IMG/VR virus record: IMGVR_UViG_3300043775_002839
Span: 29,706-93,705 of that record
Reading direction: 5' to 3' (one strand)
Length of the DNA stretch: 64,000 nucleotides
Source: a virus
Shown: in pieces, positions 27,269-62,774 of the stretch
How the letters are laid out: each line of letters starts with the position of its first letter
How positions within the stretch are numbered: the first letter of the stretch is position 1
The notes under the pieces: model-generated
Database searches by the model: none
Seen by the model: only the letters and a program-made list of their open reading frames with translations
What the model was told of the DNA's origin: nothing
Translations under genes and position numbers: made by a program

Positions 27269-27619
27269 ATGAAAATAATTAAAACATTTGAGGAATTTAC
27301 AAGCTCACTTCAAGAAGATGCAATCGATGCAGGTGAAGATTCAAAAGTAGTAGTTGACGATGTCACACTTGACTCAGGAAAAGAAATTAAATCCACTGAA
27401 ATCCTAGGGACTATATTATCCTCTAAAAGTGAAAAGGAATTTAAAGAATATTTCTATAAAGAATACGGAAATACAGCGTTTACCGAAGAGGATATGTTTA
27501 CCCTTGTTAAATTTTTTAATGACTACCAAGAGGAAGTTGCTCAAAAAGAGAAGGATGCCGAAAAAGATGCAGAAGGCGGAGAAGGTGGCGAGGAAAAGGA
27601 TCCATTGGCAGACATTTAA
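27269..27619 (+). CDS. Small acidic prohead core/internal protein
   Basis: Between portal and protease; starts MKIIKTFEEF. Confidence 0.6.
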   Translation: MKIIKTFEEFTSSLQEDAIDAGEDSKVVVDDVTLDSGKEIKSTEILGTILSSKSEKEFKEYFYKEYGNTAFTEEDMFTLVKFFNDYQEEVAQKEKDAEKDAEGGEGGEEKDPLADI

Positions 27620-27679
27620 TTTTTAAAAATCTTCAAAAATTAACTGGATATATAATAGAAATATAATAAAATAATAATT

Positions 27680-29602
27680 ATGACTAAAAACTTACTGATC
27701 CTAGAAAGATCGTCTACAGAGTTAGAGTTTAAACAAGAAGGTGGGACCTATGTTCTAGAGGGTATCTTTGGAGAAATCGATAAGAAAAATCGTAATAACC
27801 GAATCTATACTGAATCTGAATACTTACCGCAAATTGAGGCTCTACAGGCAAAAATTAAATCATCTAAGTTATTAGGTGAATTAGATCACCCGCAAACATT
27901 TGATGTTTCTTTAAAAAATGTATCACATATTATTGAAGAACTTACTTATGACACAGAAACTAAGCAGGTTAAAGGACGTATAAGATTATTAGATACTGAT
28001 GCTGGAAGACAGGCAAAAGCCCTTGTAGATGCTGGTGTTCCATTACAAATTTCAAGTAGAGCAGCTGGTGCAGTTGAATCTAATGGAACTGTAAAAATTA
28101 AACAATTATTTACTTATGATTTAGTGGCAGACCCTGGGTTTGAAAACGCTGAATTGAAAAGAGTTAATGAAGCTTATGGGTTTCTTAATGAAGGAAATGA
28201 CCTATTTATTTACGAGATAAATAAAGAAAACGAACAACAACCAATCGAAAATATAAACGAAACAAAAATGGCAGAGTCTAAATTTATTACGGTTGAGGAT
28301 TTTAATAAATACTCTAAATATCTTTCTGAAGAAATTAAATCTATTAAAGAAGGTATGAATTCTTTAACAGAATCAGAGTCTACTAGTTCTCAATTAGGAA
28401 CCCTTAAAGAATATACTGATTATTTAGCTAAGAAATTAGATGAATCAATCAAATATTCAGAACACATTGCTGAAAAAGCAGACCAAGGTATTCAATACTC
28501 AGAAACACTTGCAGAGAAATTGGATCAAGGTATTCAATACTCAGAGCATATTGCTGAAAGCGTTGATGCTATCAAAAATTACACTAACTATTTAGCTGAA
28601 TCTTACAATGAAGGTTCTACTTCTTACGAGAATTTAATTAAATATACTGAATATTTAAGAGAGAACTTAGAAAAAGTAACTGAGTATGCTGAGTACGTTG
28701 CAGAAACTGTTAACACTAACCTATTATTAGAAGACGAAGCAGGAATTCCAGCTGAAGACCTTAAAGATGAAACAGAAGATGTTTCTCCTGATGTCGTAGA
28801 TGCTGACGGTAATGTAATCACTGGAAAACCAGAAGACGTTGCTAAAGATGTAAAACTTGCTGGTAGTGGAGATGCTGCTGGTGAAGAAATTAAAGAAGCA
28901 AACGACGGAACTGCAGCAGGTTTACCAGCTGAAGATATCAAAAAAGCTACTAAAGATGTTACTGTAGATGTAATTGATGCTGACGGTAATGTAATTAAAT
29001 CAAAACCAGAAGATGTAGAAAAGGACTTAGAACTTGCCGGTAAAGGAGACGCTGCTGGAAAACAAGTTGACCAGATGGAAGCTTACAAAAATTCAATCAC
29101 TTCTAAATTAGAAGCCCTAGTTGAAAAAGTAAATGCTAAAAAAGAAGACAATCCAACATTCTTTAAATTTATCTCTGAAGAGAAAGTAACCGAATTTAAC
29201 GCCCTATCTACTGAAGATAAAACTAAAGTTGTAAGTGCAGTCGAAGGTAGAGGTTACCTAACTGAAGGACAAATCTTGGCCCTATGGAATACTTCATTAA
29301 GTGGAGTTGTAGAAACTAATAATTCACCTACAGTTATTAAATTAATGCCAACTGAATACCATGATACTTGGGCTAAATGTTCTGAAGGTAAGAAAAACCA
29401 AATCATCGCGCAGTCTAAATATCATAAATTAGAAACAGCTTACCAAGTTGCAAACTTTTGGCAAACTAGAGACCTTAGAGAAGTTGCTCCAGTAATGGAA
29501 AAAATCGCTATGGTAAATGAATCAACAGTTGAAGATGTTCAAACTTTAGGTTATGATGCTACCCAATTAGGTGCTGAAATTGCAAAAAGATTCAATAGAT
29601 AA
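27680..29602 (+). CDS. gp21: Prohead protease (gp21) fused to a scaffold (gp22-like) region
   Basis: NRNNRIY, GELDHP, ISSRAAG, YDLVADPGF, then ~440 aa coiled-coil and repeat region. Confidence 0.88.
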   Translation: MTKNLLILERSSTELEFKQEGGTYVLEGIFGEIDKKNRNNRIYTESEYLPQIEALQAKIKSSKLLGELDHPQTFDVSLKNVSHIIEELTYDTETKQVKGRIRLLDTDAGRQAKALVDAGVPLQISSRAAGAVESNGTVKIKQLFTYDLVADPGFENAELKRVNEAYGFLNEGNDLFIYEINKENEQQPIENINETKMAESKFITVEDFNKYSKYLSEEIKSIKEGMNSLTESESTSSQLGTLKEYTDYLAKKLDESIKYSEHIAEKADQGIQYSETLAEKLDQGIQYSEHIAESVDAIKNYTNYLAESYNEGSTSYENLIKYTEYLRENLEKVTEYAEYVAETVNTNLLLEDEAGIPAEDLKDETEDVSPDVVDADGNVITGKPEDVAKDVKLAGSGDAAGEEIKEANDGTAAGLPAEDIKKATKDVTVDVIDADGNVIKSKPEDVEKDLELAGKGDAAGKQVDQMEAYKNSITSKLEALVEKVNAKKEDNPTFFKFISEEKVTEFNALSTEDKTKVVSAVEGRGYLTEGQILALWNTSLSGVVETNNSPTVIKLMPTEYHDTWAKCSEGKKNQIIAQSKYHKLETAYQVANFWQTRDLREVAPVMEKIAMVNESTVEDVQTLGYDATQLGAEIAKRFNR

Positions 29603-29642
29603 TATTATTTTTTGGTTTTTTTAAAAAAACCAAAAAAACAAA

Positions 29643-29650
29643 GATATATA
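29643..29650 (+). promoter_or_regulatory. Putative late promoter GATATATA upstream of the major capsid gene
   Basis: Octamer (G/A)ATA(T/A)ATA recurs before most structural genes (14265, 23241, 27647, 31349, 39629, 42175, 44722, 46830, 60832); analogous to T4 TATAAATA. Confidence 0.7.
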
Positions 29651-29761
29651 ATACTTATTAAAACATATTCGATGCTCAGTTAAGAAGCAAAAAACTGAAA
29701 TAATATCGAAAACTCGTAATATACGAAAACATAAAACCATTAAAAAAAAATAAATTTACAA

Positions 29762-31279
29762 ATGGCAAATTTAATTAATGAAGCAGAAATCAGAGCAACG
29801 TGGGCTCCGATTATCGAATCTGCGACAGGTATCAACGATGCAAGCAAATTAGCTTGGATGTCAGAATACTGTCACAACCACAAATTATATGAAGATGCTT
29901 CTCAAATGAGCTTAGGTACTGCTGGTAACATCTTTGGTATGGGTGCTACAGCTTTACCTGGAAATACCTTTACAAATGGTATGTCTACTACAAAAGGTTC
30001 TGGAGACAAATCTCCTTCTTTACTTCCTTTAGCAATGCAAGTTGCTGCTCAAACTATCGGTCTTGACTTAGTACCAGTAGTTCCTATGGCTGGTCCAATG
30101 GGATTATTATCTTACTTAGACTTTGTTTACGAAGGTGGTAAATTAGGTGGAACTACTGCTCCAACTTATGTTAAAGCTAACCCAGTTGCTGGTACTTCTG
30201 ATTTAGCAGCTGCTACTGCTGGTTCTCCTGCAGTTGCAACATCTACAACTTATACTTACATTGGAAAATCTCGTATCGATGGTTATTCAATCTTTAAAGT
30301 AAATGGTAACCCAGTTGCTGCTAACGTTGCTGCCGATTTACTATTAGCTGTAAATGCTGTATTATCTCCTGATACTACCGGTACTATCTTAGATGTACAA
30401 TTAGTAAAAGCTTTAGAGGATCACGTTAAAGGATTCGCTGCTTCTACTGCATCTGGTACTCCATTTACAAGAGAAGGTGGAGAACAAACTCCAGACAAAG
30501 TTATGGGTCTATCTTTATTCTCTAAAAGCGTTTCAGCTGAAACTTTCCAAGTTGCTGCTGCCGTTACAAGAGAGCAAGTTCAAGATTTAAAACAATTCGG
30601 AGTTGATGCTGTTGCTCAAGTTGAAGCTGTTTTAACTAATGAATTAACTCAAGGTATTAACCAATACATCTTAGGAAGAATCAGAACTTTAGGTACTCTT
30701 AACGTTACTAGAGCTTTCAGCGCTGATGCATTTGACTTAAGCTTACCTGCTGCTTCATCTTTAACAGGTGGTGAAACTTTACCTTCTGTTCACAGAAGAA
30801 TTCTTTCTCAAATCTTAGCTTCTGCTAACTTAATTGCTAACAGAGGTAGAAGAGGTGCTGGTAACTTCGCAGTATGTGGACCACAAACTGCTACAGTTTT
30901 ACAATCAATCGCTGGTTTCGTTGCAAACCCAATGGCAAATACTTTCGCACAAGCTGCTGGAGCTATCTACCCATTAGGATCTGTAGCTGGAATTAACATC
31001 TATACTGACCCTACAATGGACTGGGCTGATTATTCAATCGCAGTTGGTAGAAAAGGAGACGGAAACGGACCTGGTATCGTATTTATGCCTTACTTAATGG
31101 CTGAATCAGTTCAAGCAATTGCTGAAGGAACTATGGCTCCTAAAGTAGCTGTTAAATCTAGATTCGCTCTAGTTGATGCAGGATTCCACCCTGAAACTCA
31201 ATATGTTGAATTTAATGTTAAACCAATCACTGCTTCACCAGCTGTTGCACAATGGACTAACTTATTAACTTTAGCTTAA
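29762..31279 (+). CDS. gp23: Major capsid protein (T4 gp23)
   Basis: W.PI..., VPVVPMAGPMG, EQVQDLK, RGRRGAGNF, FMPY, KSRFAL. Confidence 0.95.
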   Translation: MANLINEAEIRATWAPIIESATGINDASKLAWMSEYCHNHKLYEDASQMSLGTAGNIFGMGATALPGNTFTNGMSTTKGSGDKSPSLLPLAMQVAAQTIGLDLVPVVPMAGPMGLLSYLDFVYEGGKLGGTTAPTYVKANPVAGTSDLAAATAGSPAVATSTTYTYIGKSRIDGYSIFKVNGNPVAANVAADLLLAVNAVLSPDTTGTILDVQLVKALEDHVKGFAASTASGTPFTREGGEQTPDKVMGLSLFSKSVSAETFQVAAAVTREQVQDLKQFGVDAVAQVEAVLTNELTQGINQYILGRIRTLGTLNVTRAFSADAFDLSLPAASSLTGGETLPSVHRRILSQILASANLIANRGRRGAGNFAVCGPQTATVLQSIAGFVANPMANTFAQAAGAIYPLGSVAGINIYTDPTMDWADYSIAVGRKGDGNGPGIVFMPYLMAESVQAIAEGTMAPKVAVKSRFALVDAGFHPETQYVEFNVKPITASPAVAQWTNLLTLA

Positions 31280-31314
31280 TATTTTACTTTAGAACCTACG
31301 TTCTAAAGATACTT

Positions 31315-31346
31315 AAAGGGAACTGAGAAATCAGTTCCCTTTTTTT
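31315..31346 (+). terminator. Intrinsic terminator after the capsid gene
   Basis: AAAGGGAACTGA-GAAA-TCAGTTCCCTTT plus T run. Confidence 0.85.
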
Positions 31347-31383
31347 GTGATATATAATCTATCAAACAAAATACATTAAAATT

Positions 31384-32424
31384 ATGAACAAATTTGAAAA
31401 TTGGTATACAAGTATACTTGAAGAGGTTGCAACACCTACCAAAACCCTAGTTGGAGATGTCGATACGATTATAAACTCACTAGACACTCTTGTTAAAGAA
31501 TTAACTGAAGAATTTGATTCTCCTGAATTTAATGAAGTAAATGAGGCTGATGCAGAAGGTCCAAGCAAAGTTATGCAATGGATTTGGTGGATGCCAAAGG
31601 CCAGAAAGGCGCAACAAAAGATTAACAAAATTAAATTAAATGTTACTGACATGGAAGCTGCCGCTTCAGATGCTCCGGATAAAGACCAAAAGGCAAAAAT
31701 TAGTGCTAAAGCAGGAATTGCTAGAGACCAGGCCGGAGAACTTCAAAAAATGGTTGATGACAAATATGGTGCAAAGGGAGAATTGGTTAAAAAGGCCCTA
31801 AGTAGTGAAAAAATTGCAGGTCAAATTGCATCTATTAAAAGAGCAACGGGATTAGAAGATAATCCAAAAAAGGTTGCATCTTATAAAGAAAAAATGGCTG
31901 AACTTCAAGTTAAATACAAAGAGGATCAGGCTGCAATTGCAGAACTTGAACCTTCTGAAGAGGATAAAAAAGCTGAAAAAGAAAAGAAAGAAAAGGAAGC
32001 AAAAGATGCTAAAACCGCACAAGATAAATTAAATGCTGACGCAGAAGCTGCTAAAAAAGCAACTGCTGATAAAGAAGCTGCCGACAAAGAAACTGCCGAC
32101 AAAGCAACTGCCGACAAAGCAACTGCTGATAAAGAAGCTGCCGACAAAGAAAAACCAAAGGACGATAAAAACTCTAAAGAAGGAAAACTTAAAAGATTAG
32201 AAGATATGTTAGCAAAAGCTAAAGAATCTGGAGACGAAGAAAAAATCAAAAAAGTACAAGACTTAATTGATAAAGTTTCTGCTAAAGAATCATGGCAATT
32301 AGATGGTACTACATTAGGAATGATGTTAGAATCTGAAATCTTAAAATTAGAGATGAGTTTTACATTAAACGAGTCAAAATACAATAATTTTAGCGTTAAA
32401 GATAGATTCTCTAGATTACTATAA
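31384..32424 (+). CDS. K/A/D/E-rich late protein, possible internal head protein
   Basis: Late promoter at 31349; ADKE/ADKA repeats; several LxE-type possible protease sites. Confidence 0.55.
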   Translation: MNKFENWYTSILEEVATPTKTLVGDVDTIINSLDTLVKELTEEFDSPEFNEVNEADAEGPSKVMQWIWWMPKARKAQQKINKIKLNVTDMEAAASDAPDKDQKAKISAKAGIARDQAGELQKMVDDKYGAKGELVKKALSSEKIAGQIASIKRATGLEDNPKKVASYKEKMAELQVKYKEDQAAIAELEPSEEDKKAEKEKKEKEAKDAKTAQDKLNADAEAAKKATADKEAADKETADKATADKATADKEAADKEKPKDDKNSKEGKLKRLEDMLAKAKESGDEEKIKKVQDLIDKVSAKESWQLDGTTLGMMLESEILKLEMSFTLNESKYNNFSVKDRFSRLL

Positions 32425-32919
32425 TTTAGAATTTTTTCTTGCAATATTTAAAAACTCCTTTTGTTGATTCAATAGGAGTTTTTTTACGTGCTGTTGGAAG
32501 GCAACTGAAGATTTAAGGATTCGACCATCCACCGTCTTACCACCAAGAGTATCGTGATAATCAGGATGAACAAAGTTCTCCACATTAAAGTTATTTATAT
32601 TAGACCTGATAGGTTCACCAGAAAGTGCACAAGTCCAATCAATCGTATCATAGCTCTCCTCAAGCTCTTCACCTTTCATTAGCTCTCCAGTCGACCAATC
32701 ATAATAGTACCTGTCCCTCTTTGAATCGTTTTTATGTTTACACATTTCAAAAATAATGTGTAGGAACTGGTCAGACTGGGCACTTTCTTTTATTAGTGGA
32801 TTCTCTAATAGAAGACGACGCTGTTGTCTAGAGAGACCTTCATAACATACACCATACCTATTCCTTGGATAGGGTCCTCCAGTTCTACGAATCTTTGGGT
32901 ATTTGTTATTAAAAGCCAT
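32419..32919 (-). CDS. Hypothetical protein (rare minus-strand gene)
   Basis: 166-aa ORF fills the gap; GATAAATA on the minus strand 4 nt before the ATG. Confidence 0.7.
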   Translation of the reverse strand: MAFNNKYPKIRRTGGPYPRNRYGVCYEGLSRQQRRLLLENPLIKESAQSDQFLHIIFEMCKHKNDSKRDRYYYDWSTGELMKGEELEESYDTIDWTCALSGEPIRSNINNFNVENFVHPDYHDTLGGKTVDGRILKSSVAFQQHVKKLLLNQQKEFLNIARKNSKL

Positions 32920-32984
32920 AAGATATTTATCTGAAACTTATAGAGACCTTCTTATATAATACCTATAAACTTAAACCTAAAAAA

Positions 32985-33935
32985 ATGATTCAAGCACTTT
33001 TTACAGAAAAATATCGTCCTAAAAATCTAGAAGACCTAATCCTTCCAGAACGTGTAATGTCGAAATTTGAAAATGGACTAACACAGAACATGTTATTGGC
33101 AGGTAGCCCAGGAACTGGTAAAACTTCAACTGCAAAGGCTATTGTTAATCAATTTGGATTACCATACCTCTACATTAATGCATCTACCGATACTTCAGTT
33201 GATGTAATTAGAACCCGAATCACTGATTTCTGTTCAACAATGTCAATCCTAGATGACCAAGGAAAATTTAAAGTTGTTATATTAGATGAGGTTGATGGTG
33301 TATCTGACCAATTCTTTAAAGCACTTCGTGCAACCATGGAGCAGTTTGCAAGTAACTCTCGTTTTATTGCAACTTGTAATTACGTTAATAAAATCCCAGA
33401 CCCAATCCTTTCGCGTTTTGAAGTTATTAACTTTGATTTTGATAAAGCAGAAGAGAATGAATTGACTAAGAAATATATTAGACGAGTTTATGATATTTGT
33501 GGAAAAGAGGAGATGACAATTGAAAAACCAGCCCTTGTAGAATTTGTTAAAAGAAACTTTCCAGACTTACGTAGTACTCTTAATAAATTACAAGGATATA
33601 AGACACAAGGTACTCAGAATATTACAATAGATGACGTTAAGAAATTTAATTCAGTCTATAAAGATATGTTTGACCTTATTTTTAATCAAATGGACCCTGT
33701 AGTTAACTATAAGTACATTGTCGGTGAATATTCAAATAGAGTAGATGATGTCCTACAAACGCTTGGTCAAGAATTTATTGAGTATATTCAAACAGAAAAA
33801 CCACAAAATGCCCGACACATTCCGCAAATTGCAATTTGCGTTGCAGAACATCAAGCACAAAGAACCTTGGTAATCGACCCGGTTATTACATTGCTCGCAT
33901 GTGTGTACAAAATTCAAACAATAGTTAACGGTTAG
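32985..33935 (+). CDS. gp44: Clamp loader large subunit (T4 gp44/RFC)
   Basis: EKYRP, GSPGTGKT, ILDEVD, SRF. Confidence 0.93.
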   Translation: MIQALFTEKYRPKNLEDLILPERVMSKFENGLTQNMLLAGSPGTGKTSTAKAIVNQFGLPYLYINASTDTSVDVIRTRITDFCSTMSILDDQGKFKVVILDEVDGVSDQFFKALRATMEQFASNSRFIATCNYVNKIPDPILSRFEVINFDFDKAEENELTKKYIRRVYDICGKEEMTIEKPALVEFVKRNFPDLRSTLNKLQGYKTQGTQNITIDDVKKFNSVYKDMFDLIFNQMDPVVNYKYIVGEYSNRVDDVLQTLGQEFIEYIQTEKPQNARHIPQIAICVAEHQAQRTLVIDPVITLLACVYKIQTIVNG

Positions 33936-33936
33936 T

Positions 33937-34725
33937 ATGGAAAAGGTAGCAATAATTTGTCCAATCAAAGATGAAAATACATTTATCCATAAATTCTTTG
34001 AGTACTACAAGCAACATTTAGATAGTAAGGATATTTATATTCTAGATTTCAGATCGTCTGAAGAGTATATTAAAGATGTGATCCGTCCAAATGCAAATGT
34101 AATACATACCGATGCAGATATTTTAGATGCACCTGGAGTTTTCAATGAAATAAAAAAGAACATGGAATTGTTAAAATCTGAAGGATACAATTTTGTGATT
34201 CCATTAGATGTTGATGAGATACTATACTATCATGATGAAGGAGGACTAAAAGGATTCCTACAGGGTTTAACAAAATCCCATGATATAGTAACATGTAGAG
34301 GGTATGAAGTAATTCACATACCAACCCTACAAGAAGACCTGAAACGGGATGAACCATGGGCGCCTCAAATTAAGTATTGGTACCCTGACCAGCAGTGGTA
34401 TGGAAAAACTTTAATCTCAAGGAGTCAACTTGACTGGGAAATAGGTTTTCATAAATATAAAATAGATAATATTTGGCAACCTGACACACATGTCAATGAT
34501 AGATTACTTTTAATTCACATGCATAAAAGTGATTTTAAAACAACGATTGAACGTCACCAAAAATGGTCCTCAATGACATGGTCTGATGAGACAATCGAAA
34601 ATGGTTACAATTACCATTATAGAATAACTGAAAGGCAAAAAATAATAGATTGGTATTTTGAACCAATCTTAAACAATATTGTATATGAAATGCCAGAAGT
34701 AATAAAAAATAACATAAAAATATAA
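33937..34725 (+). CDS. GT-A fold glycosyltransferase (family 2-like)
   Basis: IICPIKDE, LDVDE (DxD), IGFH, LIHMH. Confidence 0.7.
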   Translation: MEKVAIICPIKDENTFIHKFFEYYKQHLDSKDIYILDFRSSEEYIKDVIRPNANVIHTDADILDAPGVFNEIKKNMELLKSEGYNFVIPLDVDEILYYHDEGGLKGFLQGLTKSHDIVTCRGYEVIHIPTLQEDLKRDEPWAPQIKYWYPDQQWYGKTLISRSQLDWEIGFHKYKIDNIWQPDTHVNDRLLLIHMHKSDFKTTIERHQKWSSMTWSDETIENGYNYHYRITERQKIIDWYFEPILNNIVYEMPEVIKNNIKI

Positions 34726-34786
34726 CACAAAATATTTTACCGTGTCAGATTTTTTTATTATATTTACATAAATAAATTATAGAACT

Positions 34787-36019: not shown

Positions 36020-36020
36020 C

Positions 36021-51305: not shown

Positions 51306-51425
51306 GATTTATGGATATTTTTAGTTTAGATTATTTATCTAAACGTTTCCAAAAAAATGATTGAAAAAGTTTTACCGTGTCCCATTTTTTGTTTATATTT
51401 ACACTATAATTAAAATATATAGATT

Positions 51426-52016
51426 ATGAAGAAAATTAAACTATATGAACAATTTATAGAGGAGAGAAGTGGAGAGCTTTTTAATCCTAAGAAAAACAAA
51501 CCAGTAGTATTAAAACCGACCAAAGATACCGAACTAGAAAAGGAATTCTTTAATCTTATTAGTACAGCGTACTCCGAGATTGGAGGACATATCAAGGTCC
51601 AATCACCAGAGGATGTATTTAAAGACCCTGATTGGAACTATTGGGAGGGAATAGATATTCATGGTAGTAATGATTTTGATGTTATCATGTTTGGTGAAAA
51701 AACCCGTTTTGGACTTAAATTCTCAGGAGTTGGCCATGATGGAACCAAAGATGCTAAAAGAGACTATATGGATAGACGAGGAAAGGAACTAAAGCAACTT
51801 GGATATTATATAGAAGTTTCTGGTAAAATTGCAGAAATCTTAATCAATAAATACCAAGTACCTATTGTAACTGACCGAGAGGTTGTAGAAAAGGTATTGG
51901 GTAAAAAAGTCGATTGGATTGGAAACCTAGACGGTGGAACCGGCGGAGGTTGGTACAGTCGAACTATTGGAGGAGGAGCCCATGAAAAGATAATGTTAGG
52001 TAAACCAAAAGCATAA
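51426..52016 (+). CDS. Hypothetical protein with N-terminal MKKIKLYEQFIEE tag
   Basis: ORF plus tag shared with other late proteins. Confidence 0.65.
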   Translation: MKKIKLYEQFIEERSGELFNPKKNKPVVLKPTKDTELEKEFFNLISTAYSEIGGHIKVQSPEDVFKDPDWNYWEGIDIHGSNDFDVIMFGEKTRFGLKFSGVGHDGTKDAKRDYMDRRGKELKQLGYYIEVSGKIAEILINKYQVPIVTDREVVEKVLGKKVDWIGNLDGGTGGGWYSRTIGGGAHEKIMLGKPKA

Positions 52017-52017
52017 T

Positions 52018-52527
52018 ATGAAAGCACTATTTTTACACGGTCTTGAAAGCAACCCAAAAAGCGAAAAGTCAAAGTTCTTAGCAAAGTTTGATGCCGAATG
52101 TCCCGCAATGGACTATAAAAATTCTGGACTATTTAATGAAATCTTAGCAAAGATACAATCTGATAGACCAGATGTTTTAATTGGAAGTTCTATGGGAGGT
52201 TGGTTTGCATATTGTCTTTCAACGATTACTGGAATACCAACTATTCTCTTTAATCCAGCAGTTCATAGTCGTTCAATGGAACCTGTTGTTCAAATGGGAA
52301 GTATGAAGGCAAATCATACTGTTATTCTTGGTAAGAAAGATGACCTAATTAGCACTGAAGGGACACTTGAATGGATTAAAAAGAATCCAGGAAATTTCAA
52401 TGTTCACTTTGAAAACAATGGACACCAAACACCAATTGGTATATTTAAGAAATACGTTCTGAATTCTGGCTATCTTAACGAAATGCAAAGGATTAAAATG
52501 TTTGAGGAATTCAATAGCCTGGATTAA
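52018..52527 (+). CDS. YqiA/YcfP-like alpha/beta hydrolase (esterase)
   Basis: FLHGLES, GSSMGG, NPA, DD, GH catalytic pattern. Confidence 0.85.
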   Translation: MKALFLHGLESNPKSEKSKFLAKFDAECPAMDYKNSGLFNEILAKIQSDRPDVLIGSSMGGWFAYCLSTITGIPTILFNPAVHSRSMEPVVQMGSMKANHTVILGKKDDLISTEGTLEWIKKNPGNFNVHFENNGHQTPIGIFKKYVLNSGYLNEMQRIKMFEEFNSLD

Positions 52528-52550
52528 ACATAAAACTTTAACAAAAATAA

Positions 52551-52604
52551 TTAACCTGACATTTTACCGTGTCAGGTTTTTTGATTATATTTACATATCT
52601 AATT
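52551..52604 (+). promoter_or_regulatory. Repeated putative early promoter (TATATTTACA core)
   Basis: Core at 34759, 51394, 52586, 52804, 53264, 57585, 58507, 63246; near-identical ~55-nt copy at 58472-58524; resembles the Bacteroidetes -7 box TAnnTTTG. Confidence 0.7.
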
Positions 52605-52750: not shown

Positions 52751-52835
52751 TAACTTTAACAAAACTTTAACACTCCGGATTTTCCAGATTCAAAACTATT
52801 GATTATATTTACATATCTAATTAAACAAAGGAATT

Positions 52836-53062: not shown

Positions 53063-53063
53063 T

Positions 53064-53210: not shown

Positions 53211-53296
53211 TAACTTTAACAAAATTTTAACACTCTAGATTTTCACGATTCAAACATATTGATTATATTTACATATCTAATTAAAACAAAGAAATC

Positions 53297-54003: not shown

Positions 54004-54008
54004 TTATT

Positions 54009-54227: not shown

Positions 54228-54228
54228 A

Positions 54229-54426: not shown

Positions 54427-54427
54427 C

Positions 54428-55207: not shown

Positions 55208-55235
55208 TATTATACACTTATGACAAATATTTAGT

Positions 55236-55442
55236 ATGAAACAAACAGCAGTAGAATGGTTGATATTCCATTGGATGGAACTTGATTCCCAGTATTATTT
55301 AGGTGAAATAGGAAGGATAGATTATCGGAACAAAAGAGACTCTATACAAGTAGAAGCCAAAGAAATGGAAAAGCAACAACTTAAAGAAATGTATCTAAAG
55401 GGTATTGAAAACTATGACCCAACTTTTAAAATAAAATTATAA
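55236..55442 (+). CDS. Hypothetical protein
   Basis: MKQTAVEWL...AKEMEKQQ type small phage ORF. Confidence 0.6.
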   Translation: MKQTAVEWLIFHWMELDSQYYLGEIGRIDYRNKRDSIQVEAKEMEKQQLKEMYLKGIENYDPTFKIKL

Positions 55443-55921
55443 TGACTGGAAAAATTGCAATTGTCGGAGCTGCGGCTACCGGTAAGGACTACTTAAGAAA
55501 ACGAATGATGGACAAGGGATTTGAATATGGAGTTTCATGTACAACCCGTTTACCCAGAGAGGGAGAGGTTCATGGAAAGGACTATTATTATATACCAACT
55601 GAGGAATTCGACGCTAAAATTGAAAGAGGAGAATTTGCAGAATGGCAAGAATTTAATGGTTGGAAATATGGTTTGACCAAAGATGAATTTGAGAGATGTG
55701 ATGTAATGATTCTAAATGCAGAGGCTGTCACCTTGCTTGAACCAGAGTATAGAGACCGTGTCTTTGTTATATACTTAGACATCCCAGAATCAATTCGCAG
55801 AGAGCGTCTAGGTGTTCGTGATGACAAAAATGATTCAACTGATAGAAGAATTAATGCGGATAATGAACAATTTAGAAACTTTTTGGATTTTGATTGTAAA
55901 ATAACCAACGAAAACTTTTAA
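55442..55921 (+). CDS. gmk: Guanylate kinase-like protein
   Basis: GAAATGKD, TTRLPREGEVHGKDYYY, YG. Confidence 0.85.
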   Translation: MTGKIAIVGAAATGKDYLRKRMMDKGFEYGVSCTTRLPREGEVHGKDYYYIPTEEFDAKIERGEFAEWQEFNGWKYGLTKDEFERCDVMILNAEAVTLLEPEYRDRVFVIYLDIPESIRRERLGVRDDKNDSTDRRINADNEQFRNFLDFDCKITNENF

Positions 55922-55949
55922 CAATATATAATACCTAAAACAATTTAAA

Positions 55950-56468
55950 ATGGCGAAAGCAAAACAAAAATCTACAGCAGAATTAAAAGACCTACGCGCT
56001 CAATTAGAAATTGAAGTTAATGAGGCACAAAAAGACCTAGCAGAAAAGAAGTATTCTGTAAATCTTGAAAGCATCCAAAACATTAATGCTATCTTAAAGC
56101 AAATCGACAAGAACTACGAGTGGAGCATTAAAAATGCTGCCTTTGTAATTAACCTTTACGATGCCCTAGCAGACCAAAAGCGTCAATTCCAAATTGATGA
56201 CAAAGGAGAATCTACGGTTCAACTTAATGGAGTTCAATTAAATCAATTGTACACTATTATTACAAACATCACCGGAACAGGTATTGATGGAGCAAAAATC
56301 TTTACAAGATTATTAACAAATGTAGGAGCTCAAATCTCAGCAGCCCTAAATGAAATGGCTGAGGCAAACAAGGTAATTCAAGAGAAACATGTTGCTCTAG
56401 CAGAACTTGATGTTGCAATTGATGAAGCAGAAAAACCTGAGGTTGCAGTAGAAGAAATCACACAATAA
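55950..56468 (+). CDS. Coiled-coil hypothetical protein
   Basis: ORF after late-type AATATATA at 55923. Confidence 0.6.
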   Translation: MAKAKQKSTAELKDLRAQLEIEVNEAQKDLAEKKYSVNLESIQNINAILKQIDKNYEWSIKNAAFVINLYDALADQKRQFQIDDKGESTVQLNGVQLNQLYTIITNITGTGIDGAKIFTRLLTNVGAQISAALNEMAEANKVIQEKHVALAELDVAIDEAEKPEVAVEEITQ

Positions 56469-56470
56469 AT

Positions 56471-57007
56471 ATGAAATTAGCAAGTAAATCTAAAAAACGT
56501 TTAGATTTGCTAGAGGCTATCCAAGACGGCATTACAACTCGTGATGTTTTTGAAACAATTGGCTATAAGAATCAAAGTGAGGATAAAATAATTCAATTTA
56601 TTTATCCTCACCTTCTTACTCAGTTGACAGAGTATGTCATGGAAAAGAAGGGCTTTAGCAGATCTCTTGCCAAGGAGAAGGCAAGAACAATGATTAAATG
56701 GGAGGGTAATGTAAATACTACCGTGAAACAAATTCAGTTCATGGGGACTCAAAACCGTCCGGACATGACAATTCAAAATGATGGAGTTACTATTGCCATT
56801 GAATTTAAGAAAGGGGACCGAGGTTCATCTTTACGAGAAGGATTTGGGCAATCAATAGTATATTCAACTGCATATGATTTTGTGATGTATATGTTTATTG
56901 ATGTGAGTGAGGACGGTCGAATTGTCAATGGCTCTACTGCCGTAAATGAACAAAAATTCTTACAGAATCTGTGGGATAACTTTAACGTAAAATTTGCAAT
57001 AGTTTAA
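56471..57007 (+). CDS. Putative PD-(D/E)XK nuclease
   Basis: RPD...IAIEFK...GQ...Y. Confidence 0.6.
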   Translation: MKLASKSKKRLDLLEAIQDGITTRDVFETIGYKNQSEDKIIQFIYPHLLTQLTEYVMEKKGFSRSLAKEKARTMIKWEGNVNTTVKQIQFMGTQNRPDMTIQNDGVTIAIEFKKGDRGSSLREGFGQSIVYSTAYDFVMYMFIDVSEDGRIVNGSTAVNEQKFLQNLWDNFNVKFAIV

Positions 57008-57525
57008 TGAAAATATTCGTAACTTCAAATCAACAATTTGGCCGACCAGGCGCCATAAAATCATATAAAAGACCCTTTGAGGATGTCCAAGAAATGAATC
57101 AAGAACTTTTTGAATCATGGAATTCAGTAGTTTCCCCGGAAGATACGGTATATGTATTGGGTAACTTTGCATGGGATCCAGAAACTGCGGAATATTTCCT
57201 TAGAAACCTGAATGGGACTATTATTAATATAGACGGAGAATTCGACAGTGCAATTGAAGAACTATCTGAAACGGCAGTCGGACTGGATATTGACTACTTT
57301 GATGGTATCCTAGAATTTATGCCGGAAGAGAATGCAGTTCTTTCATATTGGCCCCTTCTTGAATGGCCAGGAAAATCAAAAGGGTCCTATTCGGTAGTAG
57401 GACATCCAAATAAAAAGTATCGTAGTAACCATAAGACCAAGACGGTTAATTGTTGTTGTGACTTTTGGGAATACAAACCTGTAGAATTATCCCGTATAAT
57501 TGAGCTCTTCAATGAAGTAGAATAA
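57007..57525 (+). CDS. Calcineurin-like phosphoesterase homolog with degenerate metal ligands
   Basis: Family scaffold RPF...EMN...WN..V...D.VY.LG kept, but TSNQQFG, LGNF, GEFD and GHPN replace the catalytic motifs. Confidence 0.7.
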   Translation: MKIFVTSNQQFGRPGAIKSYKRPFEDVQEMNQELFESWNSVVSPEDTVYVLGNFAWDPETAEYFLRNLNGTIINIDGEFDSAIEELSETAVGLDIDYFDGILEFMPEENAVLSYWPLLEWPGKSKGSYSVVGHPNKKYRSNHKTKTVNCCCDFWEYKPVELSRIIELFNEVE

Positions 57526-57619
57526 TGTTAATAACTTTAACAAAATTTTAACACTCTAGTGTTTCCAGATTCAAATAATTGTATTATATTTACATATCTA
57601 ATAAAAACAAAAAACTTAT

Positions 57620-58234
57620 ATGGCATCTAAATCTTACAGAGAATTAACAGAGAATTTTTTAGCAACCCGTTCTGAAGCGGACTTTACTGCACTTTTTTAC
57701 AAATTAAAACCAGGACTTACGACCTACGTTAATAAAATAGTAAAAGATCGCGAAATGTCTGAAGATATTGCAATAAACACTTTAACAAAATTGTGGACTA
57801 AAATTGATCAATATGACCCACAATACCAGATCACTACATGGTTGTACCGTATAGCATTTAATGATGCATTGGGACATATCAATAATAGAAATAAACAATC
57901 CTCTCTGGATGCCCTATCTGATTACGGTGTTGAAGTAAGTGAGAATGGTGAATTTGTTAGTGGTACCCATGGTTTAAATGGTGCTATTGAAGATTATGTA
58001 ATGAAAACCGAACAGGATTTCCTTGAGGAAGATGACGAACTTATGGCAAAATATGGTCGTGCTCTTACTGAAATCGAAAATCTTAAAGGAATGTACCGTG
58101 AAATAGTAATTGACCGTTTGATTAATGAAATGAAGTACGAAGAAATTGCAGAGAAACATGACTTACCGCTACAGACTATTAAAAACCGTATTCGTAGAGG
58201 TAAAGCAATCATCGAAGAAAATATGATGTCGTAA
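57620..58234 (+). CDS. ECF-type sigma-70 family sigma factor
   Basis: Region 2 EDI...W..IDQYD...TTWLYRIA.N; region 4 YEEIAE...TIKNRIRRGK. Confidence 0.88.
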   Translation: MASKSYRELTENFLATRSEADFTALFYKLKPGLTTYVNKIVKDREMSEDIAINTLTKLWTKIDQYDPQYQITTWLYRIAFNDALGHINNRNKQSSLDALSDYGVEVSENGEFVSGTHGLNGAIEDYVMKTEQDFLEEDDELMAKYGRALTEIENLKGMYREIVIDRLINEMKYEEIAEKHDLPLQTIKNRIRRGKAIIEENMMS

Positions 58235-58446
58235 TGGTTGTTGTTGTCTATAGAAAATCGATGGGTTCAAAAACAAAATACATGACAGTATTTGAGAATG
58301 AACAAAACCCGGATAAACTTATAAACTTGAATGCCAGGAAACCAATGATTCCAAATAATTATATTATTGATGATATTGGGGTTGGTGAAAGTTTTATAGA
58401 GAGCTATAAGAAACAACATAAAATTAAAAAACATGAAGTTTGTTAA
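58234..58446 (+). CDS. Hypothetical protein
   Basis: TAATG coupling to the sigma gene. Confidence 0.55.
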   Translation: MVVVVYRKSMGSKTKYMTVFENEQNPDKLINLNARKPMIPNNYIIDDIGVGESFIESYKKQHKIKKHEVC

Positions 58447-58541
58447 ATTGTTAATAACTTTTTGAAAATAATTAACCTGACATTTTACCGTGTCAGGTTT
58501 TTTGATTATATTTACATATCTAATTTTAACAAAGAAACATT

Positions 58542-58850
58542 ATGAAAAATTTTAAAGTACTTTCAATCGAAAATGCAAACGAAACAGGAACATCTCTTCA
58601 AGGTTACATCAATGCGACTTATAGTCAATTGCTAGAAGTCTTAGGAAAACCCACATGCGATGAACCATCGGGAGATGACAAAGTTCAACTAGAATGGGTT
58701 ATAGAATTTAAAGGTAATATTTTTACAATATATGACTGGAAAACTGGTTCAAGAGAATACACTGAAAATGAATTAACCGAATTTAATGTTGGAGGTACCA
58801 CATCTGCGGCCGATTTTATTCAAGAAATAGAATCTCAAATCAACAAATAA
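58542..58850 (+). CDS. Hypothetical early protein
   Basis: GTSLQG...FTIYDWK; after an early promoter. Confidence 0.65.
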   Translation: MKNFKVLSIENANETGTSLQGYINATYSQLLEVLGKPTCDEPSGDDKVQLEWVIEFKGNIFTIYDWKTGSREYTENELTEFNVGGTTSAADFIQEIESQINK

Positions 58851-58851
58851 G

Positions 58852-59001
58852 ATGGAAGATAAAGATACAAATATGGTAATTTTAATAATTGCATTTATGG
58901 CCTTCCTATTTGGATTCTTGGTAGCAGAATCAATATACAATGAAAGGCCAATGACTGAAGAGGAATATTATGAACTACAAAAACCACAATGGTATGAGTA
59001 A
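58852..59001 (+). CDS. Small single-TM protein (49 aa)
   Basis: Read by hand; hydrophobic MVILIIAFMAFLFGFLV. Confidence 0.5.
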   Translation: MEDKDTNMVILIIAFMAFLFGFLVAESIYNERPMTEEEYYELQKPQWYE

Positions 59002-59392
59002 AGAATTATTTTTATTAAGAGGATTACCTGGAGCAGGAAAATCAACATTGGCAAAAATCCTTGTTGGTGATAGAGATTATTGTCACAAAGAGGCCGATAT
59101 GTATTTCGTAGATAGCAAAGGAAATTATAAATTTGACTTTTCTCTGATTAAAGAGGCCCATGCATGGTGCCAAGAAGAGGTAGAGTTTCTAATGAAATAT
59201 GAGCACACTGTAGTAGTTTCAAACACATTTACACAGGAATGGGAAATGCAGGCTTACTATGATTTGGCCAAAAAATATGGATATAAAGTCAATTCTATAA
59301 TCGTAGAGAACCGACACGACGGGGTAAATGAGCACAATGTTCCGCAAGAAACATTAGAAAAAATGAAACAACGATTTGAAATTAAATTATAA
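58994..59392 (+). CDS. P-loop kinase (AAA_33 / polynucleotide kinase-like)
   Basis: LRGLPGAGKST, EAD.YF, VSNTF, HNVP; likely start ATG 58994. Confidence 0.8.
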   Translation: MSKELFLLRGLPGAGKSTLAKILVGDRDYCHKEADMYFVDSKGNYKFDFSLIKEAHAWCQEEVEFLMKYEHTVVVSNTFTQEWEMQAYYDLAKKYGYKVNSIIVENRHDGVNEHNVPQETLEKMKQRFEIKL

Positions 59393-59397
59393 AATAA

Positions 59398-60522
59398 ATG
59401 GAAAACAATAATTCAGTTTGCTACATAGCAAAAATACATGAAGTACGGGCAATCGAAGGTGCAGATAACATCGAATTAGTTATCGCAGGTGGATGGAACG
59501 CCATCACAAAGAAAGGCGAATTTAATGTAGGAGCCTTAACTATTATTGCAACAACAGACGCAGTAATACCTGAAAAACTTTCTGAAAAGATGGGAGTAAC
59601 TAATTACTTAAGAAAAGGTAATAGAGTCAGAACTGTAAAATTACGTGGAGTCTATTCAGAGTGTTTAATCATTCCAGTAATATATGCTAAAGCCAGTTCT
59701 ATATTAGAAGGAAAGGATTTAATGAATGAACTTGGTATCACTAAATATGAGCCACCAGTTAAACAAGTTCAATTGGCATCTGGTAGAAAAATTAAGTGGA
59801 GAGATAACCAAAACTTCCACATCTACTACAAGTTTCCAAACCTTAAAAATGTGGCTGGATTATTTACCCAAGAGGATGAGGTTCAAATCACCAGAAAATT
59901 GCATGGAACCAATGCACGTTATGGTATCGTAAAGAAATCTAAATTGACCCTCTGGGACAAGGTAAAGAAATTCTTAAGAATTGCTGACGAATGGGTTGAC
60001 TATGAGTACATCTACGGTTCTCATAACTGTGAGAAAGGTTCCGACTCTCAAGGATTCTATTCAACTGACGTTTGGAGAACAATCGCTGAAGAATATGGTA
60101 TCAAAGAAAAACTTTGGAACTATGCAAAATTCTTTGGAGCTAAGTATATTGGAGAAGGGGTAATTATTTATGGAGAAATTTATGGAGCTGGTATTCAAAA
60201 GAACTATACTTATGGATTGGAAAAAATTCAATTCGCAGGATTTGATACTAAAGTAAACGGAGAATATCAATCATTAGGTTTAGCATATAGCAGCATGGTT
60301 TTAGGGTTGGGATTGCCTCACGTAGAGGTACTTTACAATGGACCATGGTCTCAAGAGGTACAAGATAGTTTTGTATTCGGTAACTTCATTGATGGTACTA
60401 AAGTGCCTCATGAAGGAATTGTAATCAAGCACATCTCTGGTGAAAGAAACAAGGTGGCAAAGGTTATTAACCCAGACTACTTGATTTATGGTGAAAAAAA
60501 TAACGTAGGAGATTCACATTAA
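59398..60522 (+). CDS. RNA ligase, DRB0094/Rnl2-like, with N-terminal OB domain
   Basis: IEGADNIE, KLRGVYSE, motif I KLHGTN, YGEIYG, FD, EGIVIK, KVINPDY. Confidence 0.88.
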   Translation: MENNNSVCYIAKIHEVRAIEGADNIELVIAGGWNAITKKGEFNVGALTIIATTDAVIPEKLSEKMGVTNYLRKGNRVRTVKLRGVYSECLIIPVIYAKASSILEGKDLMNELGITKYEPPVKQVQLASGRKIKWRDNQNFHIYYKFPNLKNVAGLFTQEDEVQITRKLHGTNARYGIVKKSKLTLWDKVKKFLRIADEWVDYEYIYGSHNCEKGSDSQGFYSTDVWRTIAEEYGIKEKLWNYAKFFGAKYIGEGVIIYGEIYGAGIQKNYTYGLEKIQFAGFDTKVNGEYQSLGLAYSSMVLGLGLPHVEVLYNGPWSQEVQDSFVFGNFIDGTKVPHEGIVIKHISGERNKVAKVINPDYLIYGEKNNVGDSH

Positions 60523-60529
60523 AATAATT

Positions 60530-60793
60530 ATGAAATATAAAGTTTATATGACACAATACGTAACAGCTAGAGTTGCGGTAGAGATAGAAATTGAATCAGA
60601 CAAGGATACTGACGAATTAGAGGAAGAAATTTATGATGCTATTGAGGATTGGACAAGGCTTTCAAGGTTTGACCCAGATATAGAAGAATTTCCAGGTTCA
60701 TATGTTGCTAAATCTTATAAATATGATTTAAAATATGATGGAGATGATGGAGATGAGATAGAAGTTTATATTGAAAAAAATGAGGTTGAATAA
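60530..60793 (+). CDS. Acidic hypothetical protein
   Basis: D/E-rich 87 aa. Confidence 0.55.
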   Translation: MKYKVYMTQYVTARVAVEIEIESDKDTDELEEEIYDAIEDWTRLSRFDPDIEEFPGSYVAKSYKYDLKYDGDDGDEIEVYIEKNEVE

Positions 60794-60843
60794 AAAATCA
60801 CATTAAAAAACTTCTATCTTCATATTTATAAGATATATAATAC

Positions 60844-61797
60844 ATGAAAAGAATTAAACTATTTGAACAGTTTATTGCAGAGAAGGAGGACAATTCTGAT
60901 TTGCATAAAATCTATTTGGCTATTGATCCTGGTAGTGGGCACCGATGGTGGTCCTATAAAGACTTTGCCGGAGATAATTTCTTTGTACAGGTAACACTTG
61001 ACAATTATAAAGATATTGACATTAACCCAGAATATCCAATCCTTACATACAATTCTGGAGTAACTCAAAAGCTCCTAGACGAAGGGTTGATTAAAAAAGA
61101 AAATGTCTACAACCATCCAGAGCATATTAAACAGTCTGGTTCTAAGGCAGAATTCCATAAGTTGGTTGAAGGCGATGAAAATATCCCAAAAACTGCTCAT
61201 AATGAAAAAGATGCCCTAGAGATTGGATTCCCATTAATTGGAAAACCAGCAGAGGGACACTCAGGACTTGGTATTCAAATCTTTAAGGATCAGAAATCAT
61301 GGGACGATGCAGACCATTCGAAATTAGATGTTTATTCAGAATATATTGATAAAGCAGCCGAACACCGATTGATTACTTTTAAAGGAAAACCATTCTTTTG
61401 GATGGAAAGACAGCCAATGAACGACAAAGCAAAATCTGGAGATGGAAAAGGAGCTGAAAAAATGATGTTCAAATATATCAAAAAGGATGTTACCAAAATA
61501 CCAGGAAAATTCAACGACCTTGTTGAAAAGTTCGGTAAAATATTTTCAGACTTACCATATATCTGTTTTGATATTATGGAAGACCGTTCTGGAAAACTAT
61601 ACATAATTGAAAGTAACAGTCAACCGGGAGTACCGTTTGATTCTACAGTTCAGGCATACAGACAATTATTTAATGATTTCTACGGTCGCGATGTAAATCC
61701 AGCGGCTAACACCGAGCTCGAGAAATTGAGTAACTATATGATTAAGAAAACCCTGGACTTTGACCCAAAAAGATTTGAAATCGATGAAAAAATTTAA
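60844..61797 (+). CDS. ATP-grasp (RimK-like) ligase with N-terminal MKRIKLFEQFIAE tag
   Basis: FPLIGKP..GHSGLGI, EHR, FDI, IIESNSQPG. Confidence 0.8.
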   Translation: MKRIKLFEQFIAEKEDNSDLHKIYLAIDPGSGHRWWSYKDFAGDNFFVQVTLDNYKDIDINPEYPILTYNSGVTQKLLDEGLIKKENVYNHPEHIKQSGSKAEFHKLVEGDENIPKTAHNEKDALEIGFPLIGKPAEGHSGLGIQIFKDQKSWDDADHSKLDVYSEYIDKAAEHRLITFKGKPFFWMERQPMNDKAKSGDGKGAEKMMFKYIKKDVTKIPGKFNDLVEKFGKIFSDLPYICFDIMEDRSGKLYIIESNSQPGVPFDSTVQAYRQLFNDFYGRDVNPAANTELEKLSNYMIKKTLDFDPKRFEIDEKI

Positions 61798-62230
61798 ACT
61801 ATTTGAAGAATTTAAAAATTCTACAGCATGTCCAGTTCCGACTAAAGACCTAGAAGTTAATACTAAAAACAGAGACCGTGCAATTAAAGCAGAGCATATT
61901 GAATATGGTCCCTTAAATGTTGACGAACCTGCTGGATTTTGGGAACATATTGCAGACCACTGGAATACTAGCGTAGAAGCTGCTAAAAAATCATTATGCG
62001 CAAACTGTGCTGCATTTGATGTTTCACCAAGAATGAAAGAATGCATGCCCGGAGAATTAAGCGACCCAGATGGTGAATTAGGATATTGTTGGATGCACCA
62101 GTTTAAATGTCACTCTGCAAGAACATGTTATACGTGGGCTAAAGGTGGACCAATATCAACTGACAAAATCTCTTTTAATTGGCAAGAGAAAAATCAAGAC
62201 GCTGCAATGAACAAAAATCCTATAAAATAA
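61784..62230 (+). CDS. Cys/His-rich putative metal-binding protein with MKKFKLFEEF tag
   Basis: CANC...C...GYC..H.FKC...RTC..W; likely start ATG 61784. Confidence 0.65.
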   Translation: MKKFKLFEEFKNSTACPVPTKDLEVNTKNRDRAIKAEHIEYGPLNVDEPAGFWEHIADHWNTSVEAAKKSLCANCAAFDVSPRMKECMPGELSDPDGELGYCWMHQFKCHSARTCYTWAKGGPISTDKISFNWQEKNQDAAMNKNPIK

Positions 62231-62231
62231 T

Positions 62232-62774
62232 ATGAAAAGAATTAAATTATTCGAAGAGTTCTTGAATGAAAAGGAGAATGTAACGCACAATTTTAATTGC
62301 GCAATGTTATACTTTGACTTTCCGGCAATGGCAACTCTACACCAATCAATTCGACCTGAAGATATATACACAGTAGAAGCAGATGAAAGTTACGGTCTTG
62401 AAGATGAACCTCACTGCACCTTATTATACGGACTTCACCCTGAAGTAACAGTGGACCAAGTTGCAGATAAATTAAAAGGAATCAAACTTGGTGAGTGCGT
62501 TGCTCACAATCTATCTCTTTTTGAAAATAAAGACTTTGATGTCTTAAAATTTGATATGGAAGGTGATAATCTTCACAATGCAAATAAAGCACTTAGCTCG
62601 CTTCCGCACACTACGGACTATCCGGATTACATGCCACACATGACTGTTGCCTACTTAAAACCAGGTAAGGGTTCTGAATACTTAAAAATATTAAACTCGC
62701 AAGAGCATTCTCTAAAACCACTTCATATTACTTACAGTATGACAGATGGCTCTAAACAAAAAATAGATTTATAA
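62232..62774 (+). CDS. 2H phosphodiesterase (T4 57B/Acb1-like or LigT-like) with MKRIKLFEEFLNE tag
   Basis: Two HxT motifs: PHCTLLYG and YMPHMTVAY. Confidence 0.85.
   Translation: MKRIKLFEEFLNEKENVTHNFNCAMLYFDFPAMATLHQSIRPEDIYTVEADESYGLEDEPHCTLLYGLHPEVTVDQVADKLKGIKLGECVAHNLSLFENKDFDVLKFDMEGDNLHNANKALSSLPHTTDYPDYMPHMTVAYLKPGKGSEYLKILNSQEHSLKPLHITYSMTDGSKQKIDL

Follow-up and report, generated by a model that had tools for sequence, protein, structure and literature searches.

We suggest that a short peptide tag shared by otherwise unrelated proteins of an uncultured, T4-like giant phage is its lineage's version of the T4 capsid-targeting sequence, and that the proteins bearing it are predicted head cargo; from the comparative evidence we put the probability of this at roughly three in four. 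The tag was studied in a window of 64,000 nucleotides (bases 29706-93705 of IMG/VR record IMGVR_UViG_3300043775_002839, a 93.7-kb viral contig listed as 30% complete), to which the coordinates below refer unless stated otherwise. The database phages closest to the contig are uncultured giant phages, with 52% identity between the capsid proteins in the case of LR756500.1. The tag consensus spans 13 residues, MK-x-IK-L-[FY]-E-[EQ]-F-[ILV]-x-E, and six genes of the window carry a copy, five at the N-terminus and one, an esterase gene, at the C-terminus.

As we envisage it, the leader would be a helix-prone peptide of 13 residues, two aromatics of which would dock the protein onto the scaffolding core during prohead assembly. 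An S77 prohead protease fused to the scaffold would then cut the [ILV]-x-E end after Glu, and the mature protein would remain in the head alongside the DNA. Such a label would be portable, in that a gene acquiring the tag would become head cargo. In the window, the cargo would comprise an acidic core protein, a GNAT-like protein, an esterase (by its C-terminal tag), a RimK-like ATP-grasp enzyme, a Cys-rich protein and an Acb1-family 2H phosphodiesterase. The precedent of T4 IPI, IPIII and Alt suggests that at least some of this cargo would leave the head along with the DNA, to act against host defences or on host proteins early in the next infection. Binding to the core, cleavage, virion residence and ejection of the tagged proteins are all steps that we infer from sequence comparison.

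Tag copies and their likeness to the T4 sequence

In the T4 record, internal proteins (IPs) IPII and IPIII begin with MKTYQEFIAE/A, and IPI begins with MKTFKEFTSTTTPVSTITE/A (slash, cleavage site). Mutagenesis of the T4 sequence has assigned targeting to residues 4 and 7 and processing to residues 8 and 10 (PMC9026906), and the T4 prohead protease gp21 cleaves after Glu in I/L-x-E (PMC12991175). All four of these functionally mapped positions are retained in the tag as [FY]xx[FY][ILV]xE, the aromatics ([FY]) standing at tag positions 7 and 10 in every local N-terminal copy. T4 IPI has a leader close to the one at 27269 (KTFEEFTSS...LQE), and the maturation site of T4 gp23, FGSFLTE/A, fits the same core motif.

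All six copies listed by an earlier, sequence-only reading of the window are present where it had placed them, on the forward strand: N-terminal copies at 27269 (MKIIKTFEEFTSSLQE, 27269-27316), 51426-51464 (MKKIKLYEQFIEE), 60844-60882 (MKRIKLFEQFIAE), 61784-61813 (MKKFKLFEEFKNS; MKKFKLFEEF) and 62232-62270 (MKRIKLFEEFLNE), and the C-terminal copy on the esterase at 52483-52524 (MQRIKMFEEFNSLD, then stop). The start at 61784 is an ATG within a longer frame opened by TTG, and orthologues begin at the same Met. The claim that the tagged proteins are otherwise unrelated is borne out by Pfam annotation and clustering, and a scan of the whole contig added six copies upstream of the window. With a tag profile made from 109 independent tags, all of other contigs, 12 sites on the contig score at least 4 bits (4.0-27.8) and the next best scores 0.5. 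These 12 are exactly the six window copies and the six upstream. The upstream set comprises four N-terminal copies, one within a DUF3008 protein and one at the C-terminus of a cytidylyltransferase-like protein, making nine N-terminal copies on the whole contig. Chance is excluded: the 93.7-kb contig has 10 occurrences of the strict tag motif, and 200 shuffles gave none. Codon choice varies between copies, which indicates that conservation acts on the peptide.

Looser variants of the tag (MKTFLDYIAE, MNFNQFLNE and MKTRILNFNRFITE) also lie upstream of the window. Two large ORFs (open reading frames) of 928 and 735 aa (genome coordinates 9706-12492 and 16837-19044) adjoin the upstream tag cluster; each holds one extra copy of the core motif, and the 735-aa ORF opens with MNFNQFLNE. 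Both may be polyproteins cut by the protease.

The tag is widespread in other, public viral contigs. A scan with a DNA pattern covering only tag residues 1-10 returned more than 119 viral-contig stretches with at least 156 tags, nearly all of them a few codons after an upstream stop. At positions that the pattern left unconstrained, the 142 complete ORFs favor L at residue 6 (76%), I/V/L at residue 11 (73%) and E at residue 13 (72%), with nothing conserved beyond residue 13. Clustering of their mature parts gave at least 88 unrelated groups, of which 65 have a single member. Tagged proteins are mostly small and lack a known domain; the Pfam domains that do occur among them, rarely, include LRR, GNAT, cytidylyltransferase-like, 2H/Acb1, ATP-grasp, peptidoglycan-binding, DUF5824 and DUF5661. 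The tag persists across hundreds of divergent contigs with GC contents of 0.21-0.46, and two near-complete relatives of ~235 kb carry 18-19 tags each, on the coding strand only, against none for a reversed-pattern control. Seven matches with the 13-residue spacing were found in LR756500.1, and none in Tenacibaculum phage pT24 or in T4. A literature search that included the capsid-targeting sequences of cyanophages and jumbo phages found no earlier description of the tag.

In a control of 596 billion bases of prokaryote genomes, 55 single pattern matches were obtained, only six of which combine an ORF start with [ILVM]xE. Five of these six are from archaeal contigs of metagenome-assembled genomes (four labelled Woesearchaeota) and share a common, unrelated KKFEEFI-type N-terminus. 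We rejected the prokaryote matches as tags; most of them are due to chance or belong to an unrelated family of Woesearchaeota.

The end of the leader is its best-defined part. Entropy of the leader-ending Glu is only 0.1-0.3 bits in the ATP-grasp, 196-aa and Acb1-like families described below. The five residues after it (14-18) vary by 1.6-3.4 bits in the first and last of these families; in the 196-aa family, residues 15-17 are conserved. A near-invariant Glu followed by a variable linker is the appearance expected of a protease P1 residue and a free linker after it.

A protease and a scaffold candidate of the appropriate type are encoded next to the first tagged gene of the window, in a T4-type head module. 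The module includes a portal protein (gp20 homologue; 25655-27247, +; Pfam Portal_T4, E 5.3e-70), a 640-aa protein in which an S77 prohead protease is fused to a scaffold-like region (27680-29602, +; Pfam Peptidase_S77, 2e-11) and the major capsid protein (gp23 homologue; 29762-31279, +; Pfam Gp23, 1.1e-40), which matches T4 gp23 in BLASTP (3e-15), N-terminal propeptide region included. The protease part of the 640-aa protein, residues 1 to about 195, matches T4 gp21 (BLASTP, E 4e-11), and its His70 and Ser125 are aligned with T4 gp21 H85 and S140, the residues mutated in inactive T4 gp21 (PMC12991175). The remaining 445 residues (about 196-640) are acidic repeats lying between the protease domain and the capsid gene, where T4 has its scaffold gp22, and match gp22 directly at a marginal E of 0.018. 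An S77 protease was found in all four relatives examined (G001-G004), in which the protease-scaffold fusion and its motif copies are likewise conserved, and S77 protease-scaffold genes accompany the tag in every near-complete genome examined. Near-complete relatives also have a second, short S77-like protease paralogue (132-aa frame) remote from the head module (G001:C1:156418-156672(-) and G004:C1:57359-57613(-)).

The core motif itself, counted as [FY]xx[FYH][ILV]xE across the contig's 106 predicted proteins (29,437 aa), recurs in the scaffold and is nearly restricted to it and to tags. Its 22 copies divide into 10 N-terminal leaders, seven in the scaffold region, one internal tag and four elsewhere, and the tag IKLFEQFIAEK has look-alikes among the scaffold copies, for example IKNYTNYLAE and IKYSEHIAEK. 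In relatives, the scaffold holds eight copies (G002) and three (G003). This recurrence fits a leader that would co-assemble with the scaffold, with the same enzyme cutting both. The portable T4-type tag cut after Glu, as the sequence-only reading had it, is thus strongly supported on comparative grounds, to which the mapped T4 positions, the S77 protease, the scaffold motif, the at least 88 families and the conserved Glu have been added. Its further parts, on late octamers before every copy, on physical loading into the head and on action ahead of phage gene expression, are weaker.

A comparable arrangement appears in another T4-like lineage. There, the N-terminal tag MKKQINEIKRMQQLAGIIxE(SQLNE) stands at the start of many small ORFs, at more than 120 viral loci (L132-L251, e.g. 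L165:5640-7058(-)), and its KRMQQLAGI part nearly repeats the C-terminus, KRMQKLAGIIK* (asterisk, stop), of a protein whose gene lies between those of the S77 protease and the Gp23 capsid protein. By this match, the tag of the second lineage would copy part of its scaffold protein. The N-terminus of the scaffold in that lineage, MANKDLFKQAIAEAK, resembles both the 13-residue tag and the T4 sequence. Together, these likenesses suggest that tags copy scaffold segments. A further candidate dialect, IKDYxxWLFE, was dropped as a general tag, as it was found at only five viral loci.

Predicted cargo and its promoters

The first tagged gene of the window (27269-27619, +) encodes an acidic 116-aa protein and is located where T4 has gp67 and gp68; in the relative G002, the same gene lies between portal and protease. 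All 12 of its orthologues in viral contigs carry the tag, and it is the most conserved tagged family. It has no Pfam or PHROG match and is probably a prohead core or internal protein. No PHROG family was found for four of the six tagged proteins of the window.

The 196-aa protein (51426-52016, +) consists of the tag, a flexible linker and a domain at residues 38-196. Its best 120 homologues have tag-type N-termini, and 99 of the 120 fit the N-terminal core-motif pattern. In an AlphaFold2 model (mean pLDDT, predicted local distance difference test, of 71), the tag forms a short detached helix about 25 residues from the domain. No Pfam match was obtained, an atlas search was empty, and Foldseek of the model against the PDB gave nothing significant (E 0.09 or worse). 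All 50 of the 50 best VIA matches to residues 38-196 are GNAT folds, at modest Z scores of 4.7-6.2, so that what had been noted as an unknown protein is now probably GNAT-like.

Downstream lies the alpha/beta-hydrolase esterase (UPF0227/YqiA-like; 52018-52527, +; Pfam UPF0227, 1.1e-10), whose C-terminal copy scores 9.6 with the tag profile and is retained in three close orthologues. More distant relatives encode esterase-tag-domain fusions (L070 and L116) or the esterase alone (L040); given these fusions, the copy here looks like a fusion stump, one that may still serve as a C-terminal address.

The remaining three tagged genes form an operon at 60844-62774. Its first product is a candidate RimK-like ATP-grasp enzyme (60844-61797, +; phrog_2599, 5.3e-7), for which Pfam matches stay below the cut-offs (21.8 and 19.3 bits) and PDB ATP-grasp matches are weak; many of its homologues have precomputed Pfam ATP-grasp domains. 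Tag variants are found in all 120 of its best 120 homologues, with F10 invariant and an entropy of 0.3 at E13. The second product is the Cys-rich domain protein (61784-62230, +), to which an atlas search returned unnamed viral clusters only. Its domain is represented by 747 cluster representatives and is also found inside multidomain proteins (up to 1742 aa), including one with a Mu-type portal fusion; elsewhere, it is usually preceded by a different leader or an xxE linker.

The third product is an Acb1-family 2H phosphodiesterase (62232-62774, +; Pfam Acb1 PF23474, 31.8 bits against a cut-off of 27). It matches phrog_755, which carries the annotation of T4 57B (7.7e-12), its best PDB matches are the Acb1 chains 7t26 and 9q2g, and it has two HxT motifs, HCT and HMT, the second of which aligns with the motif in 7t26. 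Alternatively, this protein may process RNA ends in a LigT-type role. Our analysis rates a late role of the enzyme in the cytoplasm as equally plausible to its pre-loading, because T4 gp21 itself sets off the cyclic-oligonucleotide-based antiphage signaling system (CBASS) late in infection (PMC12991175). Leaders of its homologues come in several dialects (MK-IKLFEEF-NE, MIKLLDLLKE, FKRMQKLAGIITE and IKDY--WLFE), a few homologues having none; all the dialects end in Glu, with an entropy of 0.1 at that residue across 114 sequences. In T4, the Acb1 gene 57B (L003:13953-14411(-)) adjoins ipI (L003:13592-13879(-)), and its start, MMEFKDFST, is similar to the IPI leader MKTFKEFTST; T4's own Acb1 may keep the vestige of a targeting leader. 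In relative L045 (reverse strand), the ATP-grasp and Acb1-like genes of 60844-62774 are kept with two other tagged genes between them, an array that, judged from its gene content, behaves like a variable cargo cassette.

The sequence-only reading had placed all tag copies behind late-type octamers. This stands for TATAAATA before 27269 and for GATATATA before the 60844-62774 operon, and fails for 51426, which follows another cassette. The T4 late octamer TATAAATA was rejected as the late promoter of this genome, as it has no strand bias (eight forward, 11 reverse); among tagged genes, it precedes 27269 only. GATATATA is strand-specific (19 forward, none reverse) and common to structural genes: it precedes the protease-scaffold gene, other large genes in the contig's structural part and the 60844-62774 operon (60832-60839, +, before the ATP-grasp gene), and one copy lies 119 nt upstream of the capsid gene. 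The cassette before 51426 consists of a terminator hairpin followed by the promoter-like box TATATTTACA (51394-51403, +), and is one of 11 such copies (11 forward, none reverse), which stand before 51426 and many small non-structural genes. In T4, early-type GTTTAC...TAxxAT promoters stand immediately before ipI, ipII and ipIII, and TATAAATA is absent within 120 nt; therefore, the partial failure of the late-octamer rule is no refutation of packaging.

The intergenic cassette, seen in the forward orientation only, combines a conserved ACAAAAtTTTAACAC box with a T-run-bearing, terminator-like hairpin and, after it, TATATTTACAtatctaatt. Copies lie at 51350-51403, 52540-52595, 52760-52813, 53220-53273, 57540-57594, 58460-58516 and 63200-63255 (all +). 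In T4-type phages, variable genes are flanked by promoter-early stem-loop cassettes, of which these copies are reminiscent.

Alternative explanations

It seems unlikely that the leader targets the prohead core but marks assembly components that are degraded and expelled at maturation, like T4 gp67, gp68 and gp22. The acidic 116-aa protein would suit such a role by its gp67/gp68 position and its standing as the most conserved tagged family, and so would the small, domainless majority of tagged proteins. However, folded enzymes and domains are tagged as well (Acb1-like, ATP-grasp, GNAT-like, cytidylyltransferase-like, LRR), with one leader site and not many internal ones, and the T4 proteins tagged in this way or processed alongside them (IPs, Alt) outlast maturation and are injected (PMC3012670, PMC5694885).

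Less likely still is a protease-gated switch, in which the S77 protease would remove the leader in the cytoplasm late in infection and thereby activate or release enzymes, for example the Acb1-like nuclease at the time when the protease trips host CBASS. T4 gp21 activity does trigger CBASS, from about 14 min (PMC12991175). The operon of ATP-grasp, Cys-rich and Acb1-like genes stands behind the structural-gene promoter motif, and the best-conserved leader residue is the cut-site Glu, both of which a switch would accommodate. It would not account for the conserved aromatic pair, which in T4 is a determinant of targeting and not of processing, or for a leader common to at least 88 unrelated families, mostly non-enzymes; and a short helix detached by about 25 residues from its domain, as in the model of the 196-aa protein, is an unlikely inhibitor.

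Several observations weigh against packaging by the tag. The scaffold assignment is based on position, composition and the marginal gp22 match (E 0.018), the tag profile gives no match in the scaffold, where the likeness is one of the short motif only, and in the gp23 alignment the cleavage site of the contig's own capsid protein is not recognisable as a core motif. Neither the tag of the Cys-rich protein nor the C-terminal copy on the esterase has a canonical [ILV]xE (in the former, before the domain), and these two may stay uncut. The 51426-52527 operon and one upstream tagged gene lie behind the early-type cassette and not the structural-gene motif. Every phage with the tag is uncultured and known from sequence alone, and the case for packaging is accordingly a comparative one; this, and the fact that ATG-AAA starts are generally good for expression, could speak for another protein-level role of the shared sequence, such as translation initiation, localisation elsewhere or turnover by a host protease. 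We consider such a role improbable, more so than the switch, as the tag matches the T4 capsid-targeting residues, accompanies S77 protease-scaffold genes wherever a near-complete genome was examined and has its motif repeated within the scaffold, and as a role at translation start leaves the internal and C-terminal copies unexplained. The least credible explanation denies the peptide any function and takes the copies for a repeat in the DNA, serving as a recombination linker or left behind by recent duplication: tagged genes do lie in variable arrays, and fusions and truncated copies suggest exchange at the tag, but synonymous codons differ freely between copies, the peptide is conserved throughout the divergent contigs and their range of GC contents, and the conservation boundary is sharp at Glu13.

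We conclude that loading of the tagged proteins into the head by a T4-type targeting sequence is the most probable explanation. A more far-reaching version of it, to which we would give slightly less than even odds, is that the tag is a lineage-specific address code copying a segment of the phage's own scaffold and borne by about a tenth of the genes of these giant phages, with at least 88 families of virion-delivered effectors, including an Acb1-type nuclease, ATP-grasp, GNAT-like and LRR proteins, and with parallel dialects (KRMQQLAGI) in other marine T4-like lineages. In that case, no phage would be known with a larger injected repertoire.

Only a handful of injected proteins are known in T4, where IPI counters GmrSD and IPIII appears to counter some defence. 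Proteins injected with phage DNA act before phage gene expression, which makes them prime counter-defence candidates. If our reading is true, a simple label would mark dozens of proteins per genome and hundreds of families in uncultured aquatic phages, and injected anti-defence candidates could be listed directly from metagenomic sequence. Were the tagged Acb1-family enzyme packaged, virions would come pre-loaded with the means to degrade cyclic-nucleotide signals. The resemblance of tag to scaffold in two lineages suggests both a mechanism of addressing and a route of cargo recruitment, and the tag could guide protein packaging in engineered phage capsids.

Comparison with known systems

The capsid-targeting sequence borne by T4 internal proteins IPI, IPII and IPIII was reportedly described by Mullaney and Black in 1996. 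Like the T4 IP leader (PMC9026906, PMC3012670), the tag is a short N-terminal leader on unrelated proteins, in which I/L-x-E comes after two aromatics spaced three residues apart; the S77 protease, portal and capsid protein are of T4 type, as the putative scaffold would be, and the tagged genes lie in variable loci. Unlike the T4 leader, the tag has 13 residues with an extra MK-x-IK-L start, and its copy number is 12 in 94 kb and 18-19 in near-complete relatives, compared with three in T4. Enzymes as cargo, internal and C-terminal copies, fusions and the protease-scaffold fusion also set the present system, read from sequence alone, apart from the T4 IPs.

T4 Alt is an ADP-ribosyltransferase that is packaged and injected and from which gp21 cleaves a propeptide at either end (PMC9026906, PMC5512222); it offers a precedent for a large, head-loaded, host-modifying enzyme and for C-terminal signals. 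Unlike the tagged proteins, it has no IP-type leader, and an ADP-ribosyltransferase stands there in place of the ATP-grasp, GNAT-like, 2H and esterase proteins found here. The 62232 protein shares its Pfam family and both HxT motifs with T4 Acb1 (gene 57B), an anti-CBASS 2H nuclease that lacks the 13-residue leader; activity of the 62232 protein on cyclic oligonucleotides is predicted only. To our knowledge, T4 Acb1 is not known to be packaged.

In the giant phages phiKZ, 201phi2-1 and SPN3US, many head-internal proteins are similarly cut after Glu by a related prohead protease (PMC5694885, PMC7411985), but phiKZ-type propeptides are mostly longer than 100 residues, have no single portable sequence and are cut at A/S-x-E sites. 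Packaging and injection have been predicted for polyvalent proteins, including some that contain 2H domains (Iyer et al. 2017, PMC5512222). These and other MuF- or portal-fused effectors, as well as the Dar proteins of phage P1, share the same predicted purpose, the delivery of anti-defence or host-modifying domains with the DNA, and both 2H phosphoesterase and Cys-rich domains occur in polyvalent or portal-fused proteins. Polyvalent delivery works by covalent fusion in giant proteins, whereas here the predicted cargo is encoded by separate small genes with a short address label. The tag is an extension of the known T4 mechanism, which is not itself new, on an unusual scale.

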